54,482 nt of DNA from Catajapyx aquilonaris. Lineage: Eukaryota. Under the pieces are notes generated by a model, which made no database searches, was not told where the DNA came from, and saw nothing but the letters and a program-made list of their open reading frames with translations. This document shows, in pieces, positions 18,027 to 54,482 of this stretch; within the stretch, counting starts at the first letter, position 1; every line of letters starts with the position of its first letter. Location of the stretch: assembly GCA_000934665.2 (NCBI GenBank), contig JYFJ02002575.1, positions 1 to 54,482 on the forward strand, read 5' to 3'. The position numbers and the translations under genes are program-made.

Positions 18027-21000
18027 ATGGAGGCTCAACACTTCTTGGGGATGCTGAAGGAGAAGCTGGCCTACCTTCCTGGAGGTCATGACCGAAAAGG
18101 GAGGCCCATTCTGGTGGCCACAGTTCCTTCAGACGGGATGGTTTGCAGTCAGCATGACCTGGGACGGCTGCTCACTTACCTCACCTCATTACCTAGGTAA
18201 TATTAATTAACTATTATTCCGCACTGGATTTGCCATTTAGAGCCGTTACAAAACTCTGAAGACTTTCAAGTGGATCGTATCTCTTATATTTCCGCGTTTA
18301 AAATTATATTCATGACTGACAAGGTTAAGTGTATAAATAAAAAAAATCATTGTTGGAATTATTTTTCTTGCCAATTTAATCTCCTGGAGCTATTTCTTGA
18401 CTCGTAAAATAGAAGCAAGAAGGCTATATTTTGTCCTTAACTGTTAATGGTTAATCCCAAAGATAAATTCATCGTTTATTTACAATAGTTTGGAGGGTTT
18501 TTTTTTTAAAAAAAAAACATGCAGCAATCCAGGATTATTACAATAAAATGTTTGACTGTTGAAGATTTCATTTTCCTTTATGGATACCAATTTCAAATAT
18601 AATACGTCAATTTCTCTATAAAAATATTGGTATATCGTCCACATCGTGATCTAAATAACTTAGACACTTTATATCGACAAAAATGTGCGTTTGGCAGTTA
18701 TGTAAATTTGAAGCAATTTAAAGTGTCTTCTTTAAAGTGTTCAGAATTAGCCAATAACAGCAAATATTATTCGAAAACATGTGATTACTGATTATAGCAG
18801 TTACCCGTCTTGATGACTCTACATTATAGTGATTCTCAGCCATCAACCTCGGACCACCTACAACTGCAAAGTGACAAACTGTACCCTGAAACTGTACTGG
18901 CAGAGAAAATTCCTGAGATTTATGTACTCTGTCACTTTCAAGTTCAAAAGCCACAATTGGATTCGTCATACTGCCTCACTATCCGTTATGATATCCTTGC
19001 TATTTTTCTCTCATCTCACCGGTTGTTGTTACAGAAAAGAGGTACGATCAGGAGGTTTCACGGTGGTGGTGGACATGCGGAAGGGGTCGTGGAAGACCGC
19101 AAAGCTGTGGTTGAAACAAGTGGAGGCCTCACTTCAGATGCTCTTAACCCAGCTGTGCCTCGTTAGACCGGAGCATTTTTGGGACAAACAGAAAGTGGAC
19201 TGCACAAAAGCTGAGACCGGAATACAGGTTTGACATTCATTTCCAAGACTTGTTATCTTGTCGCCGCACCTTGATGACTCTTAAACCCTTTGATGGCCAC
19301 AGGTCATGGTTGTGACACCCTCGAAGCTTCACCGTCTGGTCGATTCTTCCCAACTGCCCCCTGAATTTGGCGGGTCTTTGCCGTACGATCACGAACAGTG
19401 GCTGCAAAATCGGATCGTGAGTTTGCCTGACTCCAAGTCATTCAAAGAGACGGCCGGGGGGAACAAAAAGAGGAGAACGTCATCGCTATTTTTAAATTTT
19501 TGCAGAGATTGGAATCGTTTTTGAAGAATGGAGAGGCAGTCAAGGCGGACCTGGAAAGAATGTGGCTTAGACTAACGGCTGCTAAGCTGGCTCTTCCATC
19601 CTCAGATTTGCAGGTTGTGACTAAAATTAGTCAGGAAATGTACGCAGCTTCAATTACTGCTGCTAGGAAAGTTATTGACGAAGGCAAGTGACCATCAGTA
19701 CGTCTTCAATGAAAATCCATTAATATTTCTCCTATGTATGCAACCGGAATTGCAACATTTTATGACAAATATAGTCTAATTGATTAGGCAAAAATATTAG
19801 AAATATATATTCACCAAAGCAAAATTTTGCACGTTCTTGAAACATTTTGCAAGCACTTTTTAGTTATTTTTTCTGCACTTGAATGTATCACTTTCTGGGC
19901 GGAATATTACTCCAAAAATCTGCCTAAACACACGGTAATACGTGGTTCTGAATATTAATTATAGATTCGTACATTTTGAAATTTACCATTTTAATTTAGG
20001 ACATGATCTGCTACGACATCTGAGAGATGATACCGATTACGGATTCAAGTCCGTCCCGCAAAAGTTAACAACGGATATGTCAGATTGTCAACATGAGGTT
20101 TGTACAAATTGTGCACCCGCAATTATTATAATCACTGTTTAATTTTATTATTGTACAGATTACAGATTTATTGGAGCTGATCAAGAGGCAATTAGTGGTA
20201 ATGGAAGCAGCTAAGCGCGAACTGGACTCGTTCCTCATACAAGCAAGAGCCTTACAGAAACTGAAAGGCGACACGTCAAAATACATTCGGTGGATCCTTG
20301 CCGAAGGTCAAAAGGTCACTTCCGGAGCCACCAACGTCGGCCTTGACCTCAGGGTAGCAGCCGAGATGAAGCAGCGTCACGATCAGTTGCAACAAAAGTG
20401 CAACGTAAGTTGAGGACGCAAAGAAAATTTATGGATAAAACTTAATGAGACACTAATGTTATTAATTAATGAATAATTGTATTCCATTTTAATAAGGGCT
20501 ATTTGATTGGTTTTAAATATTCTTTCAGGCTCGTTATTTGGAATTTGAGTCTCTCTTTCGTCAAATGTCCGAGTTGGAATCTAGTCCGATGGGCCTTCCC
20601 AAGGATCTAATGGGTCAAAGGGACAAACTGATTGATCTCTATCGATCCATGTCGGACAGGATGGAAGAGAGGCGATTACTTTTGGACGTTTCCCACGCCT
20701 TTCATTCTCTCATCGAAGAAGTCAGTCTACTCTTCGCGTGCCAGCTGGCCTCCTTTTTTCCCTCCATAATAATAACTCTCAGCGTGATGGCTAATTAATT
20801 ATGGTCCGTTGCAGATTGCGAGCAGCGCTGAAGAACTACAGGATGTCAAGGAACCAATGGATGTCGAATCGACCCGTAAAGCACAGGAAACATTGCGGTT
20901 GTTTGACAAAATGGAAGCCAATATGGGTACGGGGACGTCTGTCCAAATTGGCCATTTTTTACAACTGCCTAAAAATGTTCTTATGATCTTTCAGAGAGAT

Positions 21001-24000
21001 TGTTCAAAGAAGCGGAATCGGGAGGTCAGAAACTGAAGAAGCTGCTGTCGGTTCCAGTAAAAGATCTGGAAGGTCGCATAATGGCAGTGGATTACAGGGG
21101 TCACATTTCGTTCATAGAGCAGATCTGGCAGAAGACTAAAGTCCTTCGTCGCTCGTTTGTCGACACCCTGCAAGTGAAGAAGCTGAAGATCCAGCAGATC
21201 ATTTGCATCCACAGCTGCGAGACTGAGGCTGAGAGGACCATCAAGTTGCTGGAGCAGCTGCATTTGGTCTTCCTCAGCTCAAACATCTACGTCGGATGCA
21301 AGGACCAGGAAGTCGACGAGGTGAAGATGGATCTGGAGAAGTTCAAGAACGTGGCCAAAAGCACTTTTGACCAAGGTCAGCAGCTTCTGGACACATCGAC
21401 GCTTTTACGAAAGCAGCACAAGCTGTGTCCAGAACCTGCGGAGAAGCTGTGTCAAAGGCTGCACAGCGCCTGGAGAGACTTCCAGGTGTCGTTGCAGCGC
21501 CACAAGCTCAGATTAAGAACCACCAGCACCTTCCACAAGAGTGCTACCGAGGTACAACTATTGTTAATTCATGATGTCCTGGACTATTCACTAACTCAAT
21601 TCCTTCTTCCAGTACAAGAAGCGGCTGCAAGAACTGACCAAAGCGGTGAAGGAAATGTCCAGCGTCTCTTCGTCCCTCCTGAAAGAGCACAAGATGAGAC
21701 GATACATGTCATCAGGCGAGAGGCTCCTGGAGGACGTGGGACGGACCTTAAATTTTGGGAAGCTGGTCAAGGCCCAACTGGAAGAGCCCGTGTGTCAGCA
21801 GAGGTAAGAGGTTGAGAACACTGAAGTTTGTTGATCTTTAAAAAACGCAGCAGGTGACATCTTTTTGCGCGACACTCTCTGGCAGACTCCTCTCTCCATG
21901 TTGTGTTGGCAAACGACCTGGTTTTGCCCATAAGTCTTGATTATCAGCCAATTCCCGCCTGCACCCACACTTGGCAGGGGTCTTCCAAAATTAACTCGGT
22001 ACATCTACCCTGCACATTACCAACTGCAACGCCTCACTTTTTTTTCGCCATATTCCAAATTAGGTGCGAATTACACTCGAGACATAATTATGAAGAGAGA
22101 GCCTTATGGCTGAAGCAGTAATTTAATGCTATGGAGTAATTTTACTTTTGACCGAAAAAAGTTGCGCCAAGTTGTTATTTTTATATCGGAAATTGGGTCG
22201 GAGCGGCTATTTTACGCTTTTTTGTCGGCCAACATGTTTCACCACCATGGAACAGGCCACTGATCATTTTGGAAGTGCCTCCTGTGTACAGGGTGGTTAG
22301 ACCAACATATGGTGCCATGAGCCACACGGGGATGTATTATTTACTTCTAATATCAGCCGAACCTTGCCATGGCACAGATTCCTCAAATTAAAAGCATCCC
22401 CAATTTGTTGTGGTGCGCGTGGATTCGCCTGCATAAACCCCGCAAGAAGCTCCTATTTTCAGATCTCTCCAGAAGATCCTGATTTGCGATTATGCCTAAG
22501 AGACGAGTCTTCAGGTGTGGGAAGATTCGTTGGCACCGGGCAAGGTTTCAAAATATGTCTTCTCATTTCCTTGGGTCCACTCTGCGATGCAATGAGCGAC
22601 CTTCTTTTCGATGATTTTTTACTTGCTGATGGTATAGAGTAGTTGTTGGCAAGCTTTGTATACTGTTCCGAAAAATCTTGTTGGGTCCATGTGGGCTCCT
22701 CTCTTCTTCTTTTTTCTTGTTCACATCACGCACGCGTGTGCTCAAGCCAGATGGACCCTGTGTACGTTGACTGGGGATTGAGCTGCTTGCTGGCCCCCTG
22801 ACGGGTTTCGCCAAATGCTACACGTTTTGTCTCGGCCGAATTTCTGCTGGAGTCACCACCTTTTTTAAAAGTAGGACTCGGAGTGATTTTGAACCGAAGA
22901 GTTGGATGGTCGTGGAATGGATTTCACGTGAGTTGGTTGTGCACTCATTACAGATCGAGTGATACGATGGTTGGTGAATTGGAGTGGAAAAGGAAGTTGT
23001 TGTGTACCGATATGTTCGTTTTATAGGTGAAGTCTGCTGTGCTTGTAAACTGCTGTCGTAAAATTGGGAGGTTAGTGCACTAGAAGTCTTGTCAAGGGAC
23101 AAGAATATTGCTAGCATTATGCTGATTCCTGATGGTGGTACCACGCCATAAGATTAAAAAAAATATCATTCACTGTCAAAGATTTTTCTCTTAATCTGCT
23201 TTCATGCATAACCGGGCCTAAAACTCATAATTGCATGGTTTTACGTTCGGTTTGCGTGATTTTTACTGGGGTTTACATACGCTTGATATAGCAAGCAGCC
23301 TTATTGGTCAATTATTTGAATTATTTGAAAATGAAATAAATAATTGAATTTCCTCAATTCACTGGTTACTATTATCAAGTAAAGAAAGAGTGATAAAAAG
23401 GCTAATGAGCCCCAGCTGTGTAAATTATTTTCTCTGCATGAAGAGTCATAATGCAGCATCTTACGGGGTAATGCATTTTTTTGTACAAAACGTGTCTAAA
23501 ATTCAAGGTTGGTGTAAACTGTCCAACTCCAAATAAAATTGCGCAATTACTGTGCTGTCTGATGCTGCACATTATATGAGGCATGGCTCCATATATGTTC
23601 TTAGGAGTAATATATCAGACGCAAAAATTCAACCTTATTATAATTGAAGGACTTGTTGCTTGCTGGCACCACCACTGGTCTCACGATATAAATTAACCTG
23701 TTATGACACCTGCTTCCGGGAATTACTTGCTTCTCATTTGCGAATGTTTAATTATGTGGCCAGCTGGAATGCCAAAGTCACTTGCAATCGCCATTATTAA
23801 TAATAATTCTGCGGCTGCCAATTTACAAGCTCTGCCACCTTTTGTGTTCCATAACAGGAGAAGCAACCAACTTTGTAGTGAAGTAATTACAACTCTCAGC
23901 TTGTGTTATTGCCCGGTAAGCTGTAAATGGCCCGACAAGGTCTTCACTTTTAGCCAGAAAAAAGAGCTCTTCGCAGAAGCACACTCTCAGTACCTGTAAT

Positions 24001-26170
24001 TACCGGCACTGCGGTATGTGAGGTGCCAAACATGGCTGGTATGACTGGCGTCCATATATCTAGTCAGCAATCTTGTCACAGAGCCACACTATGTGCGCAT
24101 TGGTGGTACCGCATCTCAGAAATATACACTACTTTATGCCAGCCGACAGAGAGATGATAATGAGCGCACCTAGATATTTGCGCGACGGGTATGACCTTCT
24201 CGCAATCCCATATTCGCGTCACTCACACTCAGACACCTGTCATTCCCCACAATTAGTCGGCTTCCTTTTTGTGCATCACATTGTTTTTTTTGTCCCTCCC
24301 CAATCTGGAGAGTAGGTTGCAACTCAACAACAACAACAACTCAAAGGCGACACCCAATGATATCAGATGCACATGTCGAAGTCGATTAGGACACGGTGCA
24401 TCGGGTATGTGTGTCTTGCATCGCCAAAGTTAAATTAATGACGAGAGAAGGTCGGGGTGGAGCAGCCGGTTGCCAGCTAAAGACCTTTGGAGTTTATTTC
24501 TGTACCACTATGTTGGCATCAAAATAGTGCACACACACACGGGGACGGGAGGAAGCGTTTTGGATCAGCTCTAGGATTTCCGCTTGACTATTTTCTTCCG
24601 CCTCTTTTTTTTTTTTCCACGTGTGTAATTGTTAGGTTTGGCGGCATCAGAGAGAGCTATAGAGAGAGGAAGTCCATTAACGCAGGTCGACAGTTGTGTA
24701 CATTTTATGGGAACCCACTGGTAATTTACTGTAAAAGCTAAAGGTCCTGCGGAAAGTGAAAGTGCGACGTCCAATAAATACTGTACTTCTGTTAATTTAT
24801 TTCCCTAATTTTCTACCTTTTCAGCAACGCGTCTGGTTCAACCCCCAGCCGAATAGCCATGGACGCGATCGAGTCCGAACTGACGCAGTTGTCACACCAA
24901 GCTGGCGAACTGACCGACGCCATTTTCGCCAACTCTCCGCAGACAGCATCAGTTCCACGCGAAGATGTATGTCAAAATTATATCGTGTAACTCTGCCCAA
25001 GGCGGCATGGATGGGGATTAATCACTCCAATCGCGCATGCGTATACCAGACCTGCGTGCGCAGCCTATTCCAGCAACCCTGCGTGCGCATCCAATCCACT
25101 CAGTGTGAGTGCGCATGCGCGACTGACGTGATTAATCCATCACCTTTCCCCCCTTTGGAGATGTGCAGAGTTCACGTAACGTAACCCCTACGTGACGTGG
25201 ATATGTCCGTCACGCGCGTAACGTGTTGTTGAACTGATTTGATTTTGCGCAGGCTCCTGAAGACGAAGACGAATACGTGACGACGTCTGAATGCACCTGC
25301 CACCATGGGGACGACGTGACGTATTTTTCGGACCTGTCTCGTTCGGCGTCTCTTACGTACCGGACAGCTTCCGAGGAGGAAACCATGTCCGAATTGTGAG
25401 TTGGGTCGCGGGACAGTGTGTGTCACATGCTTTATTCCAGTACAAATTGTAGTAACCTTACCTTTTAACGTTAGTCTCCCCATCACTGTACAGTAACTAA
25501 CCCTATACAGAATACAATTATGCCCATGTGGTCAATAAATAAATGTTAACTCTTTGTGGGGGTAATTACTCCACAAGTTATTTGCAAGTCACGATTGTAC
25601 CTTTTGTTGCCATGGGTGTCATTGTAAACGTGGTATTATTTTGTGCTCACACTACTGATCAGTATTATTGTAACCCATCGTTTTGTTCCTGGTAATTCTG
25701 GGCATTTGACCCTAATAACCTTCACTGCAAAAAATGTATCAATATAATTTAAAAGATTGTAAAATTGTTGGCTTGTCTTATTTACACAACCAATTAATGA
25801 ACTTTATTTTTGCCTATGCAGCACAAGAGTCATCACAATGCAGTTATTACTTTCAAGTAAAATCCAACACTACCTGTAATATATTGGTCATGAATGTTTC
25901 TTTTACAAAAAGTCACTTCAGTTGCGGTATCACATGCAATGCTATTTTGAGCTGAAATGTTCAATTTGATGATGGAGTTGAGCCTTATGCAGAGTAACAA
26001 TCATTAAGATTTGATAATATGGCATACACTGATATGTTATCAGCCTACCTCGTGGCAACAATAAAGTTTTAATGACGCATAACCCGATACAATACCCTGC
26101 TTCAGCAATGGGAATCAAGAGACCTAACCATGAACTATAGGAGTGCATCGAATGCTTAGAATCTAACCGC

Positions 26171-26266
<96 letters not shown>

Positions 26267-26448
26267 CTACTTTTAGGGAATTGGACGTAGAGAGTGGCGC
26301 ACCGAGTCCCCAGCCGACAGCTTCATTGTTGGAAGAAGCAATGGAGGCTGCCGCAACAGAAGCGAACGACAATTCGACAATGCTGGAGATGGAAGCCAGG
26401 ATTTCTGCCATGACTCCAGACTCTCTACTTTTGCACCATTTGAAAGAG
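18027..26448 (+). CDS. SESTD1: SEC14 domain and spectrin repeat-containing protein (SESTD1-like), >=741 codons; exons 18027-18196, 19035-19227, 19303-19416, 19506-19683, 20000-20097, 20159-20404, 20529-20720, 20815-20926, 20995-21551, 21613-21803, 26277-26448; 3' end unresolved
   Basis: The spliced protein MEAQHFLGMLKEKLAYLPGGHDRKG...GFTVVVDMRK...RPEHFWDKQK...QLPPEFGGSLPYDHEQWL matches the recalled SESTD1/Trio-type SEC14 N-terminus and is followed by spectrin-like helices. Phases are consistent across all junctions. The last exon (26277-26448) is less certain and ends at a phase-0 GTAAGT donor. Confidence 0.85.
26171..26266 (+). repeat. Compound microsatellite (AAT)13(GAT)19
   Basis: Directly visible perfect trinucleotide runs at 26171-26209 and 26210-26266. 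Confidence 0.98.
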
Positions 26449-29400
26449 GTAAGTCGTCATAATTCCATGAGATAAAAAAAAGTGCTCACCCGAATAATGA
26501 GATGAAACCTATTGAATTTTGTAAGACTCAAATTTGTGCAATATTGGTCATAATTATCCACGTTAAAGTATGCCTTTGGTTTTCGCAAAATTGATATAAC
26601 TGTTGGCATGTCATGTTACACTTTACTATGATGCCGTCTGACACAATTTGCCTGTTTGTTTGTGTACACTCTGAACTGGCCTTGACTCCTTTTATTGCAT
26701 GTGACCCTCTATGTCTTCAAGTTGTGGTTTTAGTGTGTGAAGGAGACAATAATTTCTAGGAATGGATCTTTCGCGGAATAATACTGAGCCTAGAGTGTTG
26801 TTGAAGGCCTCTCTTTTGCAAGGCAGTAAATCCAACCTGCCAGACGAGTCTTATTGCCTTTCGGTTCAGGTGTTACATTGTAAGCACAAATATGGCGTGT
26901 TTATAAAACCTTGCATTGTGTTACACTCTTGTTTGCTCTCGGCTCAACTTTTAAGTTCAGTATAAACTTCTGTGCATACTACAAATGCCCAAAATAATAC
27001 GCGTCCTTCCCAGCATGGTCCTTCCATTGTTCAATTTTTACAAGAAAATCCTTGTGCTCGATTTTTATTACGGTTAATATCCTCGATATGGGTGTACACT
27101 TCATGGCGCGGTTTGAGTTATGATAGTTATTTTCTTGCTGTATACGAACCGGAGATTATTAGCATGCTTGTCGCTAACTTTCACTGTCAGCAGCACATGC
27201 ATAATCATATTCTACCATATTTGCCCAACAACCTAATCAAATTGGTAATGTGTGTAAATATGCCCATGTCGTTTGCATAACTTGAGTGCATCCATTTCCA
27301 TCAAACGAGGTCCTGTGTTAACCATCCAACTTGCCATCCCAGCCAAGGCGATGATGCGAAAATTTTTTCGGCCGACGAAACCGATTATCGCTAATTAAAC
27401 TGGTAATACGTCTCGACTCTTTTTATACCAGAAAGGAGGTCACGTCTCTTCATAACACAATAGCGATTCATCATAATCTCACCTTCCGTTCTCTTCAGCG
27501 GGGTATATTAAAATGCAAACCCCCCCTCCATTCACCCTTACCAGCATTATATATATACCATCGACTTTCTTCGATCCTTTTTTGGCCAACCTTCCTCAGA
27601 GTCAGAAGGATCCACCATTGTGTACACATATTGTATTCCCTTCAGAGTGTATTCCAGCCAAGTCCCATCCGCCTAATGGAATTCAAATGAACGGCAGCTT
27701 TTTTACATCGAGTTTTGGTCCGTTGGTATAAACTTTGAGAGCCAGGGGAAGATGACAAAGGCCTATTTTTATTTTTATTTTTAAAAAAATCTCCTCGTGT
27801 TCGCAGGCCTAAACGTGCATATTAATAAGTATTTTTACTCATTCATTTATGACAAAATTATGGCAGGAATGTGTTGTAATGATAAAATGGGTTGATGTCA
27901 CTTAACTGTTGGATTTATGAATAGGGAATCTACATCTCACATTGGAGCGTTTGAAATTATACAGTCTACAGATGACTAGTATGGTATTTAGTCATCTGTT
28001 AGAAAACAGAGTAAATTGAGTTGTGTGACGCATAAGTGTAGCCAGAATTGCTTCCTTTTTTTGTAACGCGACATTTTGGGGCAGGGATTTCTGTGTCTGT
28101 GAAGCGCAAAAATAGTTGGGTTGAAGGCTAAGCATTCTTGTCTCTGCGGGGATTTCGAAGCTTCTTCCTCTCGAACGTGTGTGTGTGTGAGTATGTGTGT
28201 GGGGCGTATAAGGCTTCTCAAAATGTGGGTGGAAAGGAGAGGGGGAGGGGGGATGTGGGAAATTTTTATGACCCGTTTCTAACTGTCACATGCCCGGTTT
28301 CATTTTGCTTCCTGACATGCCTTAAGCGGGAACAGCATATTTCCGAATAGTCAGGCGAGAACAGCTCAATGTCGCAATTACGACATGTGCAGCACATCAT
28401 CCTTATGTGTCAGCTGTAAATGAAGAAATTAGCCCCAAAAAGAGTCGTCCATTCATGATGCTTATTAATAAATAAAATAGACCATGTCATTGAGAAATAT
28501 TTTTATTTCCATCATAATTTAAAATAATATACCTATGCAATCCGTAACAATTTGGCAATGAAAAGTACGCATCCATCAAATGAGAAGTAGCCTCAAATTA
28601 TTAATTTATTTGAATTGTTGCAGAAATGTTTCCCAATAGCATCTTTTCTACAAAAATTTACCAGTTTTCCCATAATTATGAAAAAAATTACCTTAACTGA
28701 ATGGTGTGTAGAGCAAAGAGGAAGAGAAGGACAGCAAGATGCCAGGAGAAAAATCATATTAATTAATAGTTCTAAATATGTGTGATCACATGTTTTCCTG
28801 TGATTCTCAGGTTTCTTTTTACAATATCAAAATCCATATATTCCAAGTCAGTGTGATGTTTGATGGATGGCCGCAGTCTTTATTATAAGAGTGCATGGCG
28901 TAATGAAGCGGGCAATGTGAATGCCCAAATATATGAAAATTAAGGGTCTAAGTTTGGAGTTTTAATTGTGCAACTCTGTACTTTGCTCGGAGGGATGAGC
29001 ACTAGTCGTTAAAAAAGTGTATCATTACCAAAGCCCCTCGCAATTCGAAGAAAACGAGGCGACCCACATGTGCTGACGTCACATCCAACAATTGCGCTTT
29101 TACTCCTTCAATCCTACCCACTCTCCGATACATAGTAGGCGGTATTAATACGAAAAAAAGTGCTATAAAACACAGCGTTGCCAGCTCAAATGCCATGTGC
29201 ATGACCTTACATCGAATGGAAACCAGCACCGATGATTTAGTTAGTCGCACGTGTGCCAGCATCCTGATCAGCAAATGAGGGGTTGTGTGTGAGAGAGAGA
29301 GTGTGTGTGGTATGCTTACGAGCCTTTCTGAGGAGCATGCGCTCTGTTTGCCTTCCCACACGAGACGTGTACGCCTCCTATCCCGAGAGAGAGATGCTGT

Positions 29401-29573
29401 AACATGCGCTTCCTTCATTCGGGCCCCGGCAGCCGAGCCGGCAAAGCGTTCAAAGTGCCACACATGACGTAACATTACGAAACCGATCCGATCGACAATA
29501 TTCGCGTAGTGGATTATTATTATTTTAATTGTAACCGAAAAAATTAATTACGGTAGTGTAGTGTGCTTGGAGA

Positions 29574-41500: not shown

Positions 41501-44500
41501 CACAATCAGCCGAGGATGCCCGCAGTATCATTGATACAACTATTTATTAATATATTTAAAAAAAAAACGTGTCAAAAGCTGCTCGAAAATGTATTTTAAA
41601 AATATCGATGCTTTACTTCCAAAGTATCGATGTTTTACTTCCAAAATATCGATGCTTTACGCCTAAAAATATCGATACGTCCTATTCAAAATATCGATGT
41701 ATTGTGTCAAACATATCGATATTTGTTGTTGAGGGACGTATCGATAAAGATGGCGGCGCCAAAGAAAATTCTGGACAAAGCGACAATCGGTTTCGTTTGG
41801 AACAAAGAGGCAAATATTGGGGCTGGACCCGCACTGATCATGGGGCCGAACCTGCACACGGGCGACCCAGGGGCGGAACCCGTTGAAGGCAGGATAAGAA
41901 CAGTTAGCGGGGCAATCATGGACACGTGGGGTAATGATGAACAAAAAAAAAGGGGGGAAAAACTTCACATTCCATATGTATATATTTGTTTCAAAACTAA
42001 TTTAATATTTGACATTTCAGAGCAAGCAGAGTCCAGTGGAGGAGCTACTGAGGCAAGCAGACCAGCTGATTTCGAACCAGAAGGGCAGGGCGGAGGTGTA
42101 CGCAGCTATGGCAGATTCATTGGGAGCCGCTTGGAAGGACCTCAACGCACAGCTGGAGCTCAGGAAGGTCATACTGGACATGCACGTCACTTTCCACACG
42201 TACGTACTGATCAAATCTTGCCAATTGCTGTTTGCTCACATTGCGTCTATTTTACAGGCGAAGCAGCGAATTCCTGGAACGCCTTCAGTCCCTGGAGAAG
42301 GTTTGCCGTGATCCTTCGTTACCATCGGAGACGGATCATGCGAGACGGTTGATCTCTCAGCTGGCAGATTTGAAGAAGTCGATGCTCGAGACATCTATGT
42401 CTGCCCTTCAGGAAGGCCAGATTTTGCTGGAGAAGCTAAAAGAAGTTGTTGCTGTTGGAACGTTGGACTCTAGGCCAGGCGAAGTTCGAGTCCCAGCACA
42501 GTTTGCCCAGTCGCAGGTTGAACATTGGATTGAGAGCCTCCATGACAAGAGGAAGATTGTCGAAGTTCTGTGGATGCGAAGGAAAAACCTTTTAGAGCAA
42601 TGTTTAGCATTGAGTCTGCTTAATAAGGACTTGGATCAGGCTGAAGCCGAGCTTAAATCAAAGCGAGATGCACTTGGACGTTGTAAACAGTTGGGAGATT
42701 CATCATCAAGTGCTGAGGTTCTCTTGATTGAGCATGATAAATTACTGCCTGCTGCCAAAGAGCTTCAAGACCGTACCTTAAAGCTGACACGAACGGCAGA
42801 GCAACTGTGCATGTCTGGTCATTACGCTGGTGAGGCAGTCAAGTCTCGTGCTTACAATGTGCTGGAGCAGTCCACAAGCTACACTTCCATGATTGAAGAC
42901 AGACATATGTTGCTAGAGGAAGCAGTCAGCTTTTTCAAACATGGACAATCAGCCTTGACGAAACTTGATCAGCTGGAGATGAGGCTGGCGACTTCAGACA
43001 CTTCAGGGCTGGCGCAGTTGCATTCCCAGGTTGCGCAGGCAGTTCATGATGCGACTGCAACTCCAATACATTTAGGAAGGGGACTGCTGGAGAAGGTGGG
43101 GGTCACAGGGGCTGCCGGGGCTCAGGTGAGGCTCACTTTTACATCTTCATTTTAAGTGTAAGGAAGTGATATAACGATATGTTGATATTTCGGGATAATG
43201 CTAGTACACAGTATCCATTACATATCTAGTCATTTTGTCACAACTTTTGTGACATCCAAGTTAACTATGGATTGCACCACACTTTGTAAACTGTTTATCT
43301 GGAGAAAAATATTAAATACCAAAACTTGGAACAATTGCCCAAACAGGTACCTTATGATATCAGTAAAGTTTTCACACTTGTTCAGAATTACTTCAGTGTG
43401 TAGTTGAAACTACACTGCATTGATGAAATTGTTACAGTTTTGTAGTCACTTACTTGGAAACATGATGGAGTTAGCTGAAGAAAGATTGTTTGTTTGCCCT
43501 ATGTAATTGTCAATTTCATAAGGTTTTGCATTATTGTGCGCAATTACGCTGTATACGCTGTATTATAGGTATATGAAAAATACTAAAGCATAACACTATA
43601 TGGCAGATATGGTTCCTATTTGAATTGTAGTTAAAGGGCCACTCCGCCAAAATTAAACCTTGAAATTACTGCAAACATCACATGACCTTCAAAATGCATG
43701 CTGGTGAAAGTCTGTTGTTGCACTCCATAAGGAAGCCATGAATTTTCGAAGTACGGTATTAAACTGTCAAGAGCATGGGACCAAGTATGATGTCAGGTGT
43801 AACTCACTTTAACAATTGTGGCTTCGCTATTTTCACACTTCACAGCCATGTCTTTTGCTTGTGTTGCCGTTGGATGCGACTGTATCCAATGGGGAAGATT
43901 TGGCCTTGTGTTTCTAGCACTGAAAGGATTATGAAGTGGCTAATGAGAATTGAAAGGGCTGGCACGTGAGAGAATAGGTGTGCTTCAATGGTTCAAAGTA
44001 ACAGTGAGGAAGACATTGAGTTTTTCATATGTCCAGAAACTTGATTGGGAGTGAGCAGTGTGTCCTTAGTTGTCTTTGCGCCCAGATGAACTAATCATCC
44101 ATGAACTGTGTGCTTGCAGGGAGTGAGAAGAATGGTGGAAGAGCTGGAAAACAGGAAGATAAATCTTCTGTCCAGTTGTAGTGCACATAAGGAGGAGAAT
44201 ATGAGAGTAACGAAGGCTGTCAATATCTTCCTGGAAAGATTTAATGAGGTAAATGACATGGTTTTTTACTCATTTTTGACTCACAGTATGGCAGTGAAAT
44301 GGACAATTATGTTATTGTTTTTACAGCTTTATGGTTGGCTGGTCAGCATTGGTGGTGCATTTGTGCAGGGTCACCAGGATATGGGCAGTGTTTTGGCCAT
44401 GGCCAAAGACTTCCTTGAATTACATCAGAGGCTCTTGAATGACATGCAGGTAAATAAATCTTTGCACTTTGATTGACAATAATACGTCAGTGACTAGACC

Positions 44501-47500
44501 ATTACATGAGAAATTTTTGTGTAAATTTCCTTAGCTTAATTTATTGTTGTTCTTGTATGCTGACTATATTTTCATTTGGCAAGTGAAATTGCAAATTGGG
44601 CAAGTTGCTTTCATTTTATCAAGTGACTTGGTGTTTGATATATACCAGGGAAATTAATTGTTGGTTTGTGCTATAATTTTCAGATGAAACGAACAGAGAT
44701 TGAATCGTTTATGAAGTCCCTGACCCCACTGTCAGAAGTTGTTGATCCATCACAGCGCAGTGACTTGGAGCACAAAGCCGAGGAGCTACGTACAGAGTGG
44801 TCCCAGTTGAACTCGCTTCTGGAAGTGCGGATTGAGTTGGCCACGGTGTACGTCAAGTTCCACAAGCTGGCTGTCCAGCTGGCCAAGGACATGGAGGACC
44901 TTGAGAACCTGATCAGAGAGGCAGACGACCCCATCTCAGAGCAGGCTTTCCAGAGGGTGGAAGAGACCTGGCTGTCCATGCAGCAGATGTACATGCAACT
45001 GGCAAAGACAGGGAAGAATTTCATAGAGGATGCCAACAAGGTGAGAATGGAAAACATGTGTGGCTTGTTCTGCACATTTGTTTGTTTGAAGTCTGCACCC
45101 TTCTCTCTTTTTTTGAACTTGACTCTGTCAAACATGGGTGACGTATTGCCCCCAGGAAGTAAGTCATGTATGCACATCCTGTGAAAAATGTATGCACAAG
45201 GGGCGCGGCACAGTGATTTAATGGCTTATGTCATAGCCTCTGAAGTCCCACGTTGGATCTTTGTTGTCAAAAAGATGTTCATGGAAATAATGCACTATTC
45301 ACCCTTGTTATTCACCATGTGGGTAATTACACAAGGAGACATGAATGACAATTGCTGTGCTCTATAGTCAAAGGTTAATGCCAAGATGCTACGATCGGGA
45401 TTTGGAATGTCAAAGTATTGGATCTCTGTGGCGTCATAAATACGGCAAGCAGGAAAAGTTATAGCGAGCCAATTTGTGCTTTGGCTCAGAAAACGCACAG
45501 TAAAAGTTGAACTTCCCCAAATTCTGTTGAATAAAAAAAATGTGAAGGTGTAGAAAGGCTGGGGTTGAAAGGCCCCATTTGTGTCTGTGAAGTGTCGGCT
45601 GTAAAATACTTGGAAGGCATGTATATATACCCCTTGCATGGATGTGTGACAAGTGGTGTGTGTGTGTGTGGGGCTGGCTGGGATCCAATCCCTTTGCCTC
45701 CTCCCTCTTTTTTTTTTGAGACTCAACTTGCTATCTTGCACTTCTCCTTTGCAAAAAAAAAAAATTATATATAAAGGTCTCAGACCCCTACTTGGATGTG
45801 AAGAGAGCCTGCTTGTGCGTGGAGACTCTCCTGGAGCACCTGGGCAGCAGACAACTTTCGCTGACCACCTTTTGGCACGACTGGCAGGCACAGGTCACCG
45901 TTGGAAGGGAGTTCACGGAACGCTGGCAGACACTAATGTCAGAGTCGAGGAAGGTCTGTCTGATTACGCTTACTTCTGGTGTACTTGCAATCACTTTTGG
46001 AGATTCTAAACATTGCTTTTATAAAATGCATGCTCACCTTCTAATTTTAATCAGATGAAAAGCAATATTGAAAGTGTTCCTCTGCAATACTCTAGTTCAG
46101 TTATGTTTAGTTTCACTACACCACAGTTTCGAAAATGAAAAATTTATTGCGGTTACATGTGTGCCTTCAGATCATATGAGGCATTACATTGCAACATTAC
46201 AGTCAACGTAATTAATTTTGACATACGGTTATGAGACGTTAAAGGTATTATTGACATAGGCTGGCTGCGTCCCAGTTGGTGGAAAAGTGTAGACTGATTT
46301 GCCCTCAGCACAGATCTGAGTTGGCAACGCAGAGGAATTCCCAGACAGAATATGTTCTTAGTGCAGTGAAAAATGTTCACGTGAAAGTTGTCACTTGCAG
46401 CCATGAGAATTGGTCCTTGTTTTCAGACGATATCGTGGGTGAGCAAACTGGATGTGCAGTTCTACCCAGTACTGACGAGTGAGAATGTCCAAGCCAAAGT
46501 TGTGTTTCGAGAGTTGGAAGACAAGCTGCAGACATTTGTTCCCGAGGTGAAGAGAGCACTGGCGGAGATAGAGCTGAGGATGAAGAGTGTCGAAACCCAA
46601 GGGCAGAAAGGTTGGAAATCTCTCCCCATTATTTTCTTTCCCACTCTCTTTCATCCTGTCTGTACCCCCATTTTTTTTTTTCTGTCTCTTTGGCTTCCAA
46701 TGCATGTTGGTGCAATGAGAGTCTTGAAAAGCGAGTGAGTTTCCTCTTCCTCGTTCTTCTCTCTCAGAAGGAGAGGAGGAGGAGGAGGAGGAAAGTGGAG
46801 CGCTGCAGTTCTAATTTCAGTGTTGAATGACTTCCAGTTGTGTGGGTGTCTTTGAAGCCCACAAACTCCGGGTAAAATTAGATGTTCTGGAATCGCCTGC
46901 TGCATTTTACTATTTCTTTTCACCTGCTGAACTCGAAAGAGTCAGTGGCTATTTCTCATGCATACTTTTCGTGCATGATTATGTTCTTCTCATAATGTGT
47001 CGAGATATGTAATTAGAATGTACTGCCAATTTTATAAAGTGTTGCAAAATGTACGTCAGTCATGAATAACAATTTGAACCCAGATTTAGCATTTTGTAGC
47101 TTATGACAACCATATAAATTGGCTGTTAATGTCTGACAGAAGGTCACGACTATTGGAAGGAATACTAGTCCTATTAAAACTTCTGGCAACATTTTGGAAA
47201 AGTATTACTATCTGGTATATAATTAAACAAGTTTCTTATTGTGCGCTGCTCTGGCATAAGGATGGTTTTAGACACACGTATCATGACAGGTGACACGCAA
47301 GGACAGAGGGAGAAGATAACCTCGGAGCTCTCAACCCAAAACCAAAGATTCCAAGTTCTTCTGACTGAGTACCAAGCCCTGATGCAAATGCTTATTGCAT
47401 TCTTCAAGAACTTGGCAGAGGTACAGTCCTTTCTCTCTCTCATCTGTGACGGGCATGCATTTGAACTATTTTTTATGTACACAGTTGGACAAAATGGTGG

Positions 47501-50500
47501 AGAACCTAAAGATCCAATACCACACCACAATCCTGCCAAGCGATTTGTCCGAAGTTGAACTAATGCTGAAGGAGCACGAGGCATCAAAGCAAGCTGTGAT
47601 GGAGCTGTTCAAGTTCACGCAAAATGAAAGCGCACAGATTATATCTAGGATACAACAACAGGTTGGACTTTATAGACAGTACATCTTGCGGATATTAATG
47701 TCTTGTTTCACTAAAAGAATTGTAGACAATGTACCACGTGTCATTTTTGCACTTAATTTAGTACTCTTAGGTGCTATTATTGTATTTCAAATGAAGGTAG
47801 CATGTATTTTCTCTCTGCAGGAGCCACCCGAGGCTGCTGATCATGACATAGCCAGGATTAAGTACGTCCTAATCTTGAAGCAGAAGGAATGGGAAGTCGC
47901 ATGGGAAGAGAGGAAGCATCAGCTCGAGTCGCACCTGCAGCTCTGCCAGTTTAACTCTGATCTCCACCAGATTAACGGCCAGTTGAATGATCTCAGTCGC
48001 CAGCTGTCCAATATGAAGGGCCAGTACGGAGAGTCATTGTCCACTGCCAAAGCCACTTCACTTGCTTTCCACAACTTTGAGCGAACAATCGAGGTAAATT
48101 TGGTGTAACATTTACGTATGGTTTTTGAAAGATAGGTTACACATACCTTAGTAATGTTAATCCAAAATTTTCATTTTCACAGCTTCTGGAGCATCGCATA
48201 ACCACCTTTGTTAGTACAGCTGAGAAGATGCTTCAGGAGCAGCACCTCTATTCGCATCACATTCGTTTCGAGCTTGACCAGCTGAGGTCAAAGTGGAGCT
48301 CATTCTACACCCAGGTTGGAGAGACTCGCAGGCTCATAGATCTTAGCATTGAGTACTTCCAACTGGTGGAAGAGGTGAGAGAGCTTTTTTGGCTTTTCGC
48401 GACACACTACTTGCATCCTACACTCATCCTCTGTCTGTTTGCATGCAAAAAAAGGGGCTTAGTAAACGGTAAGTGGTGTACTAACCAATTTAGTAGTGCG
48501 TTTGGATCATTGCGGATGGACTAATTGTGACCTCTTTGCAAAGGCTGAAGATTGGTTCAAAGAAGGGAGCAAGCTTCTAGTCAGCATCGCCAGGCAATCA
48601 AGTGCGGTTAGGAGCCCAGAAGAAGCCAACAGGTTGTTGGAGCAGGTCAATTCATTTGTGAGGCCTGGAGAAGCCAGGCAGGAGGATCGGATTAGGCGAA
48701 TAGCATCCATGACTGTGCATCTTTACGGTGAGTTCCAGTTATTAAAATGGTGTGTCCGTGGAAGTCATTATCTTGGCTGATCTGTGAGAAAGTGACTGTA
48801 ACATCGATTTAAAAATATGTGGAGCTCAAAAATTTCCAATGTTAATGATTTTTAACTTTTTTTTTGCCTTTAAATTGATTGAACCGACATGTAGTTCAGA
48901 ATGCGTGATTGCATGCGATTTGAGCCAGACAGTCTTCCACGTGACTTACAGGTTGAATGCACCTAGTAATACCCGCTGTTTCTGTGCCAAGCAGGCGAAG
49001 ACAGGTCAAACGTTTTCAACTCGGTTGTAAAAGAGAACCGCGACCTGGTTGAGTCCTTTGTCCTCATAAATGAACAACTCCGCTCTCTAACCATCAACCT
49101 GCAGCAGGCCGAAGCCCAGCGCCAGAGACAACTCAAGGTAAGATTAGGTCAATATGGATCTTATTAACATTGTTGCCAAAAAAAGGGCGCGATCCTATTT
49201 CAAGATGGAGACACTGCACCTCCCAAAAAAAACGAGACTTGGCAACCCTCATGAAAACACTGCCCTATAGAACGGTTAGAACTTGGCAGTGAGCTCAGTG
49301 GGGCTTTAAGGTTAGGGCTTGATTTGGCGGCGCCCAAAAAAAACCTCCTTCCCCCCTCCGCCATTTGCTACACCATACCTCCTTTCTACCCACCAGGAGA
49401 AGGAGGAGGCACAGGCCAACTTGGCAGCTGCTCAGGCGGAAGTGGCTGCGGCCAGAGCGGCTGCCGCTGCTGCAGAGGAAGCACGCAGGGCTGCAGAGGC
49501 TGCGGCCAAGGCCTTGAAGGAGGCCACTGCTTTCTCGCAAGTGCAGAAGGTGAGACATTGTTTTTAGGATTCATACTGGGTGAGTCATAACATTATTTTC
49601 TGCTACCGTTTCCAACTCGCAGACTATATAGGTCTGCACTCCGACCAACAGTGACTGCAGTAGGCATCAGTCCAGCATCACATATGAGTTACATATTATA
49701 AGTGCCTCTCACTAGTTTCATGTGATGCGTATTGGCTTCCAGTCCAAAAGACTTGCCTGCAGTTTTCCTTCAATATGATGTTATGAAATGCATAAGTGTT
49801 GTGACTCACTCTGTGTAAGTGGCAGTGCAGTCAGCAGGTTTGGCTGCTGAACAACTGATCCGTTCAGTTTTAAAAGTCTGCAAACGTCTAACCAGAAGTT
49901 CTGCTTCACCCAAACGCTGTATCACATGTATTTGCGGTTCATGATTTAGAAGAAAGGGAAATAATCCTACTGTTGCTTGTCATGTGTGCCCATTGCTTAA
50001 ATGAAGAGTTTACCGAACACTGACGGCGATTATGCCACTGCTTTTGTTCAAAATATTGGTCATACCATCTGACATGTCAGTGTCTTAACATATTAAATAA
50101 GCAGATTACATTTTGATGGAGATGAACTCATTTTTAGTATGGCAGAAGTGGGTTGCAAAAAAGATCTCTGAAGATATGTGGCACTGGTCCAGCCTTGAAG
50201 CAAACTCGACCCAACAGGTACTAGGACGCCTACGTTGAGAATTTGCGGCTCTAAAATTACTAGAGGAAGTCATCATGTATGAGCAACTTATTTGAATTTA
50301 TCACTATTTCCATTAATTACACGGGCACCTTAAAAACTTGAATAATGTGCTAGGAAAACTTGTAATTTTTCAGCAAGCAAGGCAAAAATACATTTATTGC
50401 TAATAATTTCAACAGGTCACAATGTTAAGGAGATTTTTTAGAGTCAACAGTATTTTTAATTTGAATTTTGTGCTTTAAGCTGCTGATCAACTGATATTGG

Positions 50501-53500
50501 ATGTTCATCTAAATTAATCAATCCGTGGTTGTAACTGTGTGCATGTATGTTTTGCAGGTGGAAGTGTTGGAAAGGTTTGCTTATCCAATCCCACCCTCAC
50601 CTGAACGACCTACGAGAGAACCGAGTCCTCCAAAGAAGGCCAAGTACGTGGAGGAACTACCACGACCACTGGCTCCGATCTTCACCGTTCCCTTAAAGGA
50701 CATCACTATCCAGGAAGGGAAAAAGTTCCGATTTGAGTGCCGTGTTACTGGATTCCCAATTCCAGAAATTACTTGGTATAAAGACAGGATCTCAATCCAG
50801 AACAATCCAGACTACCAGACTGGCTACCACACTGGTATTTGCACCCTCAGCATAGACGAGACTTTTACAGAAGACTCGGCCGTGTTCACCTGCAAGGCTG
50901 CTAATGCTGCAGGAACTGCGGAAACAAACGCCAAACTTACTGTGCAAGGTAAGGTTCAGAAGGTTTATTCAGATGTAGGAAGAAATGCGTCAAGCACATA
51001 CTTCGTTTACTTACAGAGTCGGAGTCCACTGAGACACTCAGCCCACCTCGTTTTACCCAGAAGTTTGAGTCAGGAGTGGCCAGAGAAGGAAGCACCTTCC
51101 AGTTCCAGTGCTTTGTGACTGGTAACCCATTACCTACAGTGCAGTGGACAAAGAACGACGTCTGCATCGACAATTCTTCAGACTACGTTATTACCTTCAA
51201 CAACGGTGTGTGCACTCTTCGATTTGAGGAAGTTTTCCTGGAAGACCAGGCCGAGTACCTGTGCAGAGCTACAAACAAACTTGGAATGGACCAGAACACT
51301 GCAAAACTCACTGTCGAGCGTAAGTTTGTGTTATCTGTTCAAAAGCTGTGTAGATTGAAATGTTGACTGCTTACTTGGTAATCAGGGATATCCTTTTTTT
51401 TAGCTCTTGAGCCGACAGAGGCACCATCATTTGTGGTCCCCTTGTCAAACGTGATGGCCAGAGCAGGACAGAAGATCAAACTGGAGTGTGAAGTTGCAGG
51501 ATTGCCAGGACCGCAAGTGAGCTGGCTGCACAACAACAAGCCCATTAAAGAGACCTTTGATATTAAGGTGAGCATGAAATTGTGAGCATTAAAAAAAACA
51601 AACAGTGTTGCAAAAACTTCGATTTTTACGGGCGACACGGTGGCCGAGTGGTTAGCGCCGCAGCCTTCCACCTCTAAGGTCCCGAGTTCGATCCCCAGGT
51701 CGGGCGGAGGATGCTTATGTGGATAGAGTATCGATGGGTTCTCCCCGTGTTCGCGTGGGTTTTCTCGGGGTTCTCCCGTTTCCTCCCACTATCAAAATCC
51801 ATCACATTTCAGGCAAATGATTAAAGTCGGTAATTCAAAAGATGATCCCCTAAGAGGCCCAAGGGGCCTATATCACGGGGTATCCATTATTATCATTAAC
51901 TTTGATTTTTACAGACGCAGTTTGATGGGAAGAAGGCAACTCTGGTAGTATCGGAAGCTTTTCCGAAGGATGCAGGGACGTACATTGTATCAGCTAAGAA
52001 TATTGCGGGAGAAGCTACCAGCTCATGCAATGTGTCTGTGAAGGTAATAAGCCAATTATTATAATACAAATTATCTGATCTAGATGATAACATGGAGGAG
52101 TATAAAATTATTTTTAATTTATTAGTACTTTGCCAAAACGAGGGAGATCTATCATTCCATGTCATTTTTCTCACTCTCAGATTGAAGGATATTGAGTTGT
52201 TCCTTTTTGGTTCAGATTATTAAAATTATGCGCTTCTCCTGCAGGGACGCTTGCCAACTGAAACATCTGATTCCGAGCTGGCAAGTGACATGGAGCCCGT
52301 GAAGCCAATGATCCAACTTCCTCTGGCTGATGCGAAGATCTTGGAGGGAACCAAGATCCGATTCGATTGTGTCATTGTCGGCCAGCCAGAACCAGAAGTA
52401 TGGTAACCATACAACTGGACTTGATTGAACGTGCGACTAATTTGTATCTTTTCACCAAGGTGATTTGGTACCACGACGAGCGACCTGTGAAGGAATCGAG
52501 CGACTTCCAGCTCCTCTTCCATGGCGACAGGTGCTCCCTGATTATTCAGGAAGCTTACCTGGAGGATGCTGGAGAGTACAAGGTTGTTGCCATCAACTCT
52601 GCTGGAGAAGCCTCCAGCAAGTGTAGGCTCACTGTTGAAGGTATGTCAAATTGTTATGGCAAAGGACGCTGCATAATAACAATTTGGCAAATAATAATTT
52701 TCAGCTCTTCCTGAGACAAGCGTGACCAAGACTAAGGAAGTGCTCGTGAGCGTGACAAAGGCAGAATCGCCAAAGTTTACCAAACTTTTGAGTGACATAG
52801 CAGCTAAAGAAGGTGACAGGGTCTTGATGGACTGTGCAGTGAGAGGAGACCCAACGCCTACCATAAAATGGTACAAGAACAATCAAGAAGTGCAGGATCC
52901 ATCAATTGTTCAGGTGTGCCAGTAAAGAATTACTCTGAACGTAACTCTGTGATGTTTGTGATTTCTCGGGAAGTTACGAGAATATGACTTGAAATTGACA
53001 CAGTGTGTAAATCATCTTGTGTTGCAGGTCACACCAGACGGCAAAACGTCATTGACGATAGCGATGATGACACCTGACCATCGTGGTGTTTACACCGTAA
53101 AAGCCAGCAACACAGCGGGAGAGGCCAAGTGCATCTGTGAGCTGTCCTTGAAGGTGGATGTTAGCAGGGAAGAGGCTCCCAGCTTCCCTCCAAAATTCCA
53201 GACTCTCTTTGGAGATCAAAACGTACAATCTAGGCTGCCAGCAAAGTTTTCATGTGTCATCACCGGGAAACCAGTTCCTAAGGTATTCACAGCACGAATC
53301 ACTGATTACTTTAAAAAAAAATAAGCTCAGACAATAAGAAATGTCTGGACAAAATGTTGCGTTATGATGCGAAGAAGTTCCAGATCCAAAATTACTCAAT
53401 AAATCCCTTGTTCTTTTCAGGTTCAGTGGTTTCATAAAGGGAACTTGATTCCTTCGGGAGACAGGACTTTTGTGACTTCTAGTGATGGTGACCATCATAC

Positions 53501-54482
53501 ACTGTACATCGCAGAGCCTCTTCCAATTCACACGGGACAGGTCACATGCACAGCAGAAAATAGTGCAGGAAGGGCAACATGTATGGCTTCACTTTCTGTC
53601 AGAGGTAAAATTTTGTGCCACTTTATCTGCATTGTTTTCCAATGTTTTGTATTGTTGAACAAATTTATAGGATTTCTCACTCTCATTTCTTTACAAGGAA
53701 AGCATATTTACAGTGCGATTTATTCCAGATCCAACTCCAGTAATGTCAGTTATGCCCAGTGTTGACAGCAAGGTACAGGAGAAGTTTGAATCGTTCTCCA
53801 TGCAGAAGACGACCTTTGTCCAGTCCTCAAGTAGCACCACTACCGAGATCGGTGGCCAAGGGGTAGAACCGAAATATGAGAAGCACTCTTTCAGTAGCCA
53901 GGAAGAACACTCTAAGAAGACAGTCAGTGGGCTGCCTGAAGAGGAGGTACGTGGATAAAATGATATGAATTTTCATGTGCAGTAATCGTAATGTTTTTTG
54001 TGTTCAGACATTGTCCCGCCAGTCCAAAGAGGTTCATGAAACAGACGAGCAGCCTGCGTCTGTTCAAGAACGGGCCGCCTTCTTTATGTCTAAAGGTGGG
54101 GTGACCACTGAAGAGAAGATCATTGATCGTACATCCTCCCCACTGCCCATCAAGCAGCGACCCTCGGCTGGCCCTCGGTTCACAACACCTCTTACCGGGA
54201 CCATGATTGAGGAAGGAGGAACCATCATTCTTGAAGGGATGGTTGATGGTAAGTTGTATTGCATGATTTTCTAGGAAAGAGCAATATGTTTTTTCTTCGG
54301 ATAATATTGCTGTCAATCTGGAACTTGCTTCGTTAGGATTAGTATGTGAACTAACACTGACATCGATTTTTTTTTACTATTGTGTAGGTTATCCTGAGCC
54401 AGAAATAACTTGGGCCAAAAATGGACAAGCAGTCCAGAAAAGACCAGGTTTGGAGACGAGCTTTATTCACAACAAGGTTCGC
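29574..54482 (+). CDS. sls: Titin-like / sallimus (zormin-type) muscle protein, 5' part: CCDC141-like spectrin-repeat region followed by I-set Ig domains; continues beyond the window
   Basis: Exons 29574-29759, 41069-41191, 42021-42199, 42258-43125, 44120-44248, 44327-44449, 44684-45040, 45777-45953, 46427-46610, 47290-47420, 47485-47661, 47821-48093, 48183-48374, 48544-48727, 48995-49137, 49397-49549, 50558-50948, 51017-51319, 51404-51567, 51915-52043, 52245-52397, 52460-52640, 52705-52913, 53028-53282, 53421-53604, 53729-53946, 54008-54248, 54388-end join in one frame with GT-AG introns. They encode spectrin-like repeats, six complete I-set Ig domains plus the start of a seventh, and the sallimus/zormin-type linker GRLPTETSDSELASDMEPVKP. 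Confidence 0.9.
30908..30984. repeat. Perfect 77-bp palindrome (38-bp arms, 1-nt centre)
   Basis: AGCTTAATTGAAACATATAGTGTGTAGTGTTCACCACA-T-TGTGGTGAACACTACACACTATATGTTTCAATTAAGCT. The arms are exact reverse complements. Confidence 0.97.
41603..41757 (+). promoter_or_regulatory. Array of seven TATCGAT(A/G) DRE-like motifs followed by a YY1-type motif; candidate internal promoter or insulator
   Basis: TATCGAT starts at 41603, 41625, 41647, 41670, 41692, 41714 and 41739; three are the full TATCGATA. AAGATGGCGGC at 41747-41757. The motifs are directly visible; their function is inferred. Confidence 0.5.
51630..51897 (+). mobile_element. Full-length tRNA-derived SINE with V-type central domain (V-SINE-like)
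   Basis: A box TGGCCGAGTGG (51641), B box GTTCGATCC (51686), and core GTTCTCCCCGTGTTCGCGTGGGTTTTCTCGGGGTTCTCCCGTTTCCTCCCAC (51738-51789) matching the recalled V-SINE conserved domain. It has a 3' stem-loop and an (ATT)-type tail, and is flanked by the 15-bp direct repeat AACTT(C/T)GATTTTTAC at 51615-51629 and 51898-51912. Confidence 0.88.

Follow-up and report, generated by a model that had tools for sequence, protein, structure and literature searches.

We analysed 54,482 nucleotides of Catajapyx aquilonaris DNA (the window: assembly GCA_000934665.2, contig JYFJ02002575.1, positions 1-54,482, forward strand), a stretch in which two genes follow each other on the + strand. The first is a SESTD1-like gene with its start codon, an ATG, at 18027 (gene 1); the second, which starts about 3 kb further downstream in the same orientation, has a zormin/CCDC141-like spectrin-repeat rod that runs in frame into titin-type immunoglobulin (Ig) domains (gene 2). 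The region is intron-rich eukaryotic DNA with a GC content of about 0.40-0.46. In our reading the window very probably holds the 5' part of a sallimus (sls)/I-connectin locus, which is the titin locus of invertebrates, and next to it the gene that is conserved as its upstream neighbour. The four coordinates that delimit the two genes in the original prediction all hold: 18027 is a start ATG, 26448 closes a probable exon at a donor site, 29574 is again a start ATG and 49549 is an exon end. The transcript evidence consists of the spliced contigs, rather than the raw reads, of one run of unrecorded sequencing type, here called X1. The features of the locus, with the evidence for each in brackets, are:

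18027-21803, + strand: SESTD1-like gene exons 1-9, 646 amino acids (homology, AG..GT borders, open frame)
18027-18196, 19035-19227, 19303-19416, 19506-19670 and 20159-20404, + strand: gene 1 exons 1-5 (homology and splice consensus)
20529-20720, 20815-20926, 20995-21551 and 21613-21803, + strand: gene 1 exons 6-9 (homology and splice consensus)
24825-24966, 25253-25395 and 26277-26448, + strand: probable gene 1 exons 10-12 (frame-compatible chain with the best splice scores)
26449-29573, no strand: spacer between gene 1 and gene 2 (scan of open reading frames)
29574-29759, + strand: gene 2 exon 1, with start codon and conserved N-terminal motif (X1 loose end, homology, GT donor)
29760-41068, + strand: gene 2 intron 1, 11.3 kb (X1 loose end)
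41069-49549, + strand: gene 2 exons 2-16, the CCDC141/zormin-like spectrin-repeat rod (X1, tblastn, GT/AG sites)
41069-41191, 42021-42199, 42258-43125, 44120-44248 and 44327-44449, + strand: gene 2 exons 2-6 (tblastn and GT/AG sites)
44684-45040, 45777-45953, 46427-46610, 47290-47420 and 47485-47661, + strand: gene 2 exons 7-11 (X1 from 45953 onward)
47821-48093, 48183-48374, 48544-48727, 48995-49137 and 49397-49549, + strand: gene 2 exons 12-16 (X1 joints)
49550-50557, + strand: intron joining the spectrin part to the Ig part (skipped in X1 record 3, GT..AG)
50558-54482, + strand: gene 2 exons 17-28, titin-type I-set Ig domains, running off the window (X1, then inferred)
50558-50948, 51017-51319, 51404-51567, 51915-52043, 52245-52397 and 52460-52640, + strand: gene 2 exons 17-22 (X1 joints)
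52705-52913, 53028-53282 and 53421-53604, + strand: gene 2 exons 23-25 (inferred; the joint 52640/52705 is from X1)
53729-53946, 54008-54248 and 54388-54482, + strand: gene 2 exons 26-28 (inferred)

The junction between the rod and the Ig array of gene 2 is present in spliced RNA. Record 3 of X1 (7480 nt, depth 50), for which 15 GT..AG joints are listed, from 45953/46427 to 52640/52705, in addition to eight that are not displayed, joins the exon end at 49549 to 50558, a joint whose shorter side spans 153 letters. The reading frame is open across this joint into the Ig domains. The 22 exons from 29574 to 52640 splice into 1633 amino acids, and the six further inferred exons up to the window end bring the protein to 2034 amino acids, both stop-free; the original prediction had a CCDC141-like part in one spliced frame with Ig domains, and this is what the transcript contig and the open frame reveal. 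The inferred exons 23-28 are backed by an alignment with P0006, a Schistocerca model, as far as its residue 2038. Record 3 continues for about 5 kb past its position 2323, and one X1 record overruns the end of the stretch.

Upstream of the transcript joints, the borders of exons 2-7 were placed by tblastn collinearity with P0001-P0004 and by canonical GT/AG sites, and two loose ends of X1 contigs connect the remaining parts. The one before 45774 has 12 letters, which agree exactly with 45026-45037 and tie exon 7 to exon 8. Before 41069 lies a loose end of 255 letters, and the 30 of these that are shown are identical to window positions 29730-29759, so that exon 1 is tied to exon 2. Parts of 34483-41000, within intron 1, are not covered by X1, which counts neither way. 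Exon 1 contains TTTISTIAVQSGKNRIVIALLQ and has a GT donor after 29759; an in-frame stop codon at 29559-29561 precedes its ATG at 29574, and the N-terminus aligns with a crayfish (Cherax) model from residue 1. In intron 2 we observed a 22/44-base tandem repeat (41598-41720). Within the intron between 51567 and 51915 one X1 contig is two letters short of the window, at 51869, and the X1 loose ends that lie at 51630 and 51806 point to either an alternative exon or retained intron sequence between the same two borders.

We examined the domain content of the region with two Pfam scans, one of 39 open reading frames (ORFs) on the + strand, each scanned singly, and one of the 94 ORFs of at least 60 amino acids on both strands of 21.8-41 kb. 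The spectrin part of gene 2 (42.2-46.1 kb) gave above-cut-off matches to DUF7799 (31.4 bits), Spectrin (30.7 bits) and Spectrin_7 (57.3 and 51.0 bits), the Pfam cut-off being 27 bits for both Spectrin_7 (PF25101) and DUF7799 (PF25075). In the interval 50.5-53.8 kb, seven of the 39 ORFs scored above the cut-off for the I-set domain, another two fell slightly short of it, and the tandem I-set array within the window amounts to six complete Ig domains and a partial one. Spectrin_7 and DUF7799 are common to the window, to catfish CCDC141 and to a chordate CCDC141 cluster of the Atlas.

Homology searches with gene 2 led to the same families. The largest spectrin exon, searched as 42256-43125, matched five proteins, four of them from insects at 41-49% identity; one match is named CCDC141-like, and Timema P0001 carries Spectrin_7 together with I-set. 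By tblastn these homologues are collinear with 41.06-52.4 kb of the window, P0003 also with 29685-29759. A profile built from the insect homologues, with which 8000 candidates were scored at a cut-off of E up to 0.001, recovered 164 proteins. Among the matches listed are arthropod and mussel models with a common spectrin and Ig architecture, variously named zormin (Cochliomyia), CCDC141-like (Ceratosolen, Ctenocephalides, Ornithodoros) and titin (Drosophila grimshawi, Rhopalosiphum, Amphibalanus, Mytilus). The profile also finds catfish CCDC141 (P0114) at E 1.4e-68. In pairwise alignment, residues 30-1131 of gene 2 match residues 2-1110 of catfish CCDC141 with 282 identities in 1140 columns (25%, E 1e-74, 267 bits), beginning at a conserved TTT.S..AVQ.G motif, and the Ig domains of the window match the one I-set Ig domain in which CCDC141 ends. 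The original prediction had named Trio/Kalirin/MCF2L or generic spectrins as proteins that might match better; among the 197 proteins fetched for comparison this is not so, the Trio-like DH-domain protein P0005 reaching 63 bits against gene 2. Because the alignment with the Schistocerca model holds 53% identity over 1997 columns and that with catfish CCDC141 25% over 1140 columns at E 1e-74, the similarity of gene 2 from spectrin to Ig part can be regarded as far beyond chance, and its rod can be taken as homologous to vertebrate CCDC141 along its whole length. Best matches to insects and crustaceans identify the source organism as an arthropod, since the identity of gene 2 is highest to polyneopteran insects (53-57%), followed by decapods (47-48%).

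The nine exons of gene 1 between 18027 and 21803, whose splice sites were inferred from homology and consensus, splice into 646 stop-free residues. An alternative border between exons 4 and 5, with donor 19687 and acceptor 20188, scored lower against the homologues than 19670/20159 and was rejected. Left unspliced, exon 9 runs directly into a stop codon at 21805, which would give a 647-residue protein of the kind seen in the homologue P0129 (704 residues). Exons 10-12 are probably the C-terminal part of the SESTD1-like gene and are the weakest part of the model. The middle one is covered by ORF 25238-25396, which scores E 6e-7 with a profile made from the C-terminal extensions of the homologues; exons 10 and 12 are not significant in the same profile search, and the homologues' C-terminal parts yielded only weak tblastn matches against 21.7-29.8 kb (best E 0.006). 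Position 26448 is the last base ahead of a consensus GT donor that closes the probable exon 12 in phase 0, and the unspliced exon meets a stop codon at 26473. Directly 5' of this exon, at 26171-26266, lie perfect (AAT)13 and (ATG)20 microsatellites, which give rise to long His/Tyr runs in minus-strand ORFs. About 570 bases upstream of the gene 1 start codon, ARAGORN calls a transfer RNA (tRNA) gene, tRNA-Arg (CCT), at 17380-17453 on the + strand; the ORF translations flanking it look tRNA-derived, and either a true tRNA gene or the head of a short interspersed nuclear element could fit.

The spliced gene 1 protein aligns end to end with P0123 (amino acids 1-683; 32% identity, E 5e-112), and with many other proteins as well. 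We searched the largest gene 1 exon with HMMER against 1.84 billion representatives (cut-off E up to 0.001) and obtained 76 proteins, those of SESTD1 type first. Pfam scans of the longer matches, 29 of the 76, found Spectrin_SESTD1 (PF24915) in 24 (in 23 of them above cut-off) and CRAL_TRIO_2 in seven; RhoGEF occurs in two, which are of Trio/Kalirin type and rank at E 5.5e-4 and 8.9e-4. One further scanned match, a bacterial repeat protein, is spurious. Gene 1 itself has an N-terminal, divergent CRAL-TRIO (Sec14) domain followed by a SESTD1-type spectrin repeat. With a profile assembled from seven Pfam-delimited CRAL_TRIO_2 segments of homologues, an indirect test, residues 42-151 reach 106 bits (E 1e-32); with one assembled from 23 Spectrin_SESTD1 segments, residues 351-447 reach 46 bits (E 8e-14). 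Shuffling the protein 200 times gave no match reported at E up to 10. Neither RhoGEF nor PH domains were found in the 39 and 94 ORFs scanned.

A tree of 26 rows, made by a quick maximum-likelihood run (rows: gene 1, 17 SESTD1-like proteins, three fused models and five Trio-like or unclassified proteins, leaving out fragments and N-terminally offset matches), places gene 1 on the SESTD1 side of the branch that separates the RhoGEF-bearing, Trio-like rows, with a Shimodaira-Hasegawa-like approximate likelihood ratio (SH-aLRT) support of 98. There gene 1 falls in a starred clade of 11 with SESTD1-like rows of arthropod type. For P0139, which shares the clade of gene 1, the nearest Atlas cluster is the chordate 'SEC14 and spectrin domains 1' (score 0.95). 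The gene 1 exon itself has a low recognition value in the Atlas (2033), and its SESTD1/Kalirin neighbours there are a lead and no more. Together these comparisons support gene 1 as the putative arthropod equivalent of SESTD1 in vertebrates and CG15822 in Drosophila. The succession of a SESTD1-like and a CCDC141-like gene on one strand, as originally proposed, is upheld by the HMMER search, by the tree and by the catfish CCDC141 alignment.

No Pfam-recognisable gene lies between gene 1 and gene 2 in the scan of 94 ORFs, which gave two sub-threshold matches over its whole range, and the same scan found no Pfam-recognisable ORF inside the 11.3 kb of gene 2 intron 1. Seven of the 197 fetched proteins have a SESTD1-like part ahead of a CCDC141-like part in a single gene model, namely four Frieseomelitta isoforms, one Abscondita protein, P0023 and P0150. 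The bee (Frieseomelitta) and firefly (Abscondita) models fuse all three parts and, as predicted proteins, show same-strand adjacency in these species at the least. P0150 (1569 amino acids) has CRAL_TRIO_2, Spectrin_SESTD1, DUF7799 and Spectrin_7 in one chain and is 24-29% identical to the two genes of the window; possibly it represents a connected form of SESTD1 and CCDC141 in an animal outside the arthropods.

Our reading of the locus builds on what the data give directly: an exon structure, an open frame, a spliced RNA joint, the homologies and an intergenic stretch in which the scan recognised no gene. Gene 1, as modelled, encodes a protein with an N-terminal Sec14/CRAL-TRIO lipid-binding domain and spectrin repeats, and without a RhoGEF module. 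Gene 2 encodes, from its own ATG, a spectrin rod of about 1130 residues, a short alanine-rich coiled segment and in-frame tandem I-set Ig domains. Its start would be the zormin-type N-terminus of the sls gene, whose product is a sarcomeric protein. These functional assignments draw on the literature on zormin, CCDC141 and SESTD1, and beyond the window the Ig array would continue into full-length sls.

The evolutionary meaning of such an arrangement is already known, having been published in 2025. According to the available text of Hanashima et al. (J Mol Evol 93:306, PMC12198301), SESTD1 and CCDC141 lie 5' of human TTN, and CG15822 and zormin, treated as their orthologues, lie 5' of Drosophila sls. 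The same text holds that the SESTD1-CCDC141-TTN synteny is older than the split between protostomes and deuterostomes, before the bilaterians; that a connected single gene, 'connectitin', exists in cnidarians and placozoans; and that this gene is a paralogue of TRIO/KALRN. Its protostome synteny survey, in the passages available, covers Drosophila melanogaster only. In the accessible part of PMC12657953, zormin is the CCDC141 orthologue, and joint CCDC141-TTN transcripts are cited. An ancestral origin from a single locus would follow the published 'connectitin' model, which we apply here by inference. The original prediction had set out the human gene order, which the accessible text of PMC12198301 states, and had proposed an ancestral microsynteny in which CCDC141 corresponds to the zormin part of the titin locus in the ancestor. 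That proposal is supported here and, in the passages seen, appears in PMC12198301; the accompanying suspicion that parts of it might be in print was right, as the available portions of that paper and of PMC12657953 make clear. Nor is the adjacency missing elsewhere, given the fused models of bee and firefly and the Drosophila case in the available text of PMC12198301.

Several points weigh against assigning the window to the sls locus and its upstream neighbour. The splice sites and 3' end of gene 1 are predictions, the transcript evidence falling in gene 2. When its largest exon was used in a word-based search for homologues, none of 772 candidates matched, and no single exon passes a Pfam cut-off, the best being Spectrin_SESTD1 at E 0.013 and 0.08 (18-22 kb). 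The branch of gene 1 in the tree is long (1.53), and its best match is 32% identical. The HMMER matches are unnamed, so the label SESTD1-like stands on Pfam and one Atlas look-up. For gene 2, many insect homologues carry the automatic name 'unc-89', and the window reaches no further than about the seventh Ig domain, before any kettin- or PEVK-type sls sequence. The vertebrate protein aligned with gene 2 was catfish and not human CCDC141.

We also considered that all three parts belong to one transcription unit, some transcripts of which run from the SESTD1-like through the CCDC141-like part into the Ig array; this seems unlikely, though it is the strongest of the alternatives. At 26448, where gene 1 probably has the end of its last exon, the phase is 0, the donor is a consensus one and the frame is open; in-phase AG acceptors are available inside gene 2 exon 1 and at 29562, where the AG is part of the stop codon that interrupts the frame ahead of the gene 2 ATG. 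These candidate acceptors have poor polypyrimidine tracts, however, and an agreement in phase 0 has a one-in-three chance of arising anyway. The four Frieseomelitta isoforms, the Abscondita model, P0023 and P0150 hold SESTD1-like and CCDC141-like parts together, yet same-strand neighbours are often merged by gene predictors. Similarly, the X1 loose end of 255 letters before 41069 extends 69 letters beyond the coding part of exon 1, but these would suit a plain 5' untranslated region equally well. Moreover, gene 2 exon 1 has its own ATG just after a stop codon, and the crayfish model begins at the same residue. Splicing from the donor at 26448 into 29562-29759, which would yield a three-part Sec14-spectrin-Ig isoform in insects, is a prospect to which we give correspondingly little weight. 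If it occurred, the ancestral 'connectitin', described so far for cnidarians and placozoans only, would persist as a bilaterian isoform, and the four fused Frieseomelitta models and the fused Abscondita model would be counterparts of that isoform.

Less probable still, gene 2 could be the beginning of a gene of the obscurin/unc-89 type and not of sallimus/titin, as might be thought from the many closest insect and crustacean models that are automatically named 'muscle M-line assembly protein unc-89'. RhoGEF (PF00621) is in none of the precomputed Pfam lists of the family models listed, and in Diptera the members go by the names zormin or titin. Among solved structures, the first Ig exon matches titin chains best (3b43, E 5.5e-65), a weak point because Ig similarity is promiscuous and hence not specific. 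The available texts of PMC12657953 and PMC12198301 describe zormin as an isoform of the sls gene in Drosophila. Finally, the use of contigs and not raw reads from one run of unrecorded type might raise the thought that two separate genes were joined by an assembly artefact, which we consider highly improbable given the canonical GT..AG ends and kept frame of the 49549/50558 joint, the 153 letters on its shorter side, the 14 other clean joints of the same contig and the independent models with the same architecture in many arthropods and a mussel.

The remainder of the window upstream of gene 1 holds other genes. On the - strand, two adjoining ORFs (1946-3885) make up a multi-finger C2H2 zinc-finger protein. 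An uninterrupted ORF of 1086 residues (5083-8340, - strand) combines numerous ankyrin repeats with an Ion_trans domain at its C-terminus, and looks like an apparently intronless TRP-type cation channel. An ORF of 395 residues (10284-11468, + strand) carries F-box/LRR-type leucine-rich repeats, and exons in 12784-14917 on the - strand encode a zinc carboxypeptidase of family M14 together with its activation propeptide (Peptidase_M14, Propep_M14).

As part of a sallimus/I-connectin locus with its conserved neighbour, the window provides a further independent, transcript-supported arthropod example of the arrangement, together with a precise exon map. The neighbourhood would constitute positional evidence that arthropod sallimus and vertebrate titin come from one locus, and it indicates that CCDC141 is a detached, zormin-like head of the titin locus. 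This bears on whether the springs of striated muscle have a single origin, an argument that is in print for human and Drosophila.

Three known systems can be set beside the locus. The Sec14 domain of gene 1 is 37% identical to that of P0193, a RhoGEF-bearing protein of the Trio/Kalirin family, and the domain order of the three genes mirrors Kalirin, according to the available text of PMC12198301. Unlike Trio/Kalirin, the window has no RhoGEF or PH domain in the ORFs scanned, and gene 1 groups with the SESTD1-like rows. The vertebrate SESTD1-CCDC141-TTN neighbourhood on human 2q31 has the same three components in the same order, as given in the passages of PMC12198301 that were available. Fish CCDC141 is collinear with the rod of the window from the N-terminus to about residue 1110, and also ends in an I-set Ig domain; vertebrate CCDC141, however, forms a gene of its own with just one Ig domain, whereas the rod in the window, to which it is 25% identical, runs into a tandem Ig array. 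Drosophila CG15822-zormin-sls is like the window in order and strand, with a Sec14/spectrin gene followed by spectrin repeats that lead into Ig domains, and dipteran zormin or titin models other than that of D. melanogaster are 45-47% identical to the Ig part of the window. What sets the window apart from the Drosophila case is that it comes from another arthropod species and that its spectrin-Ig junction is seen in a transcript contig.

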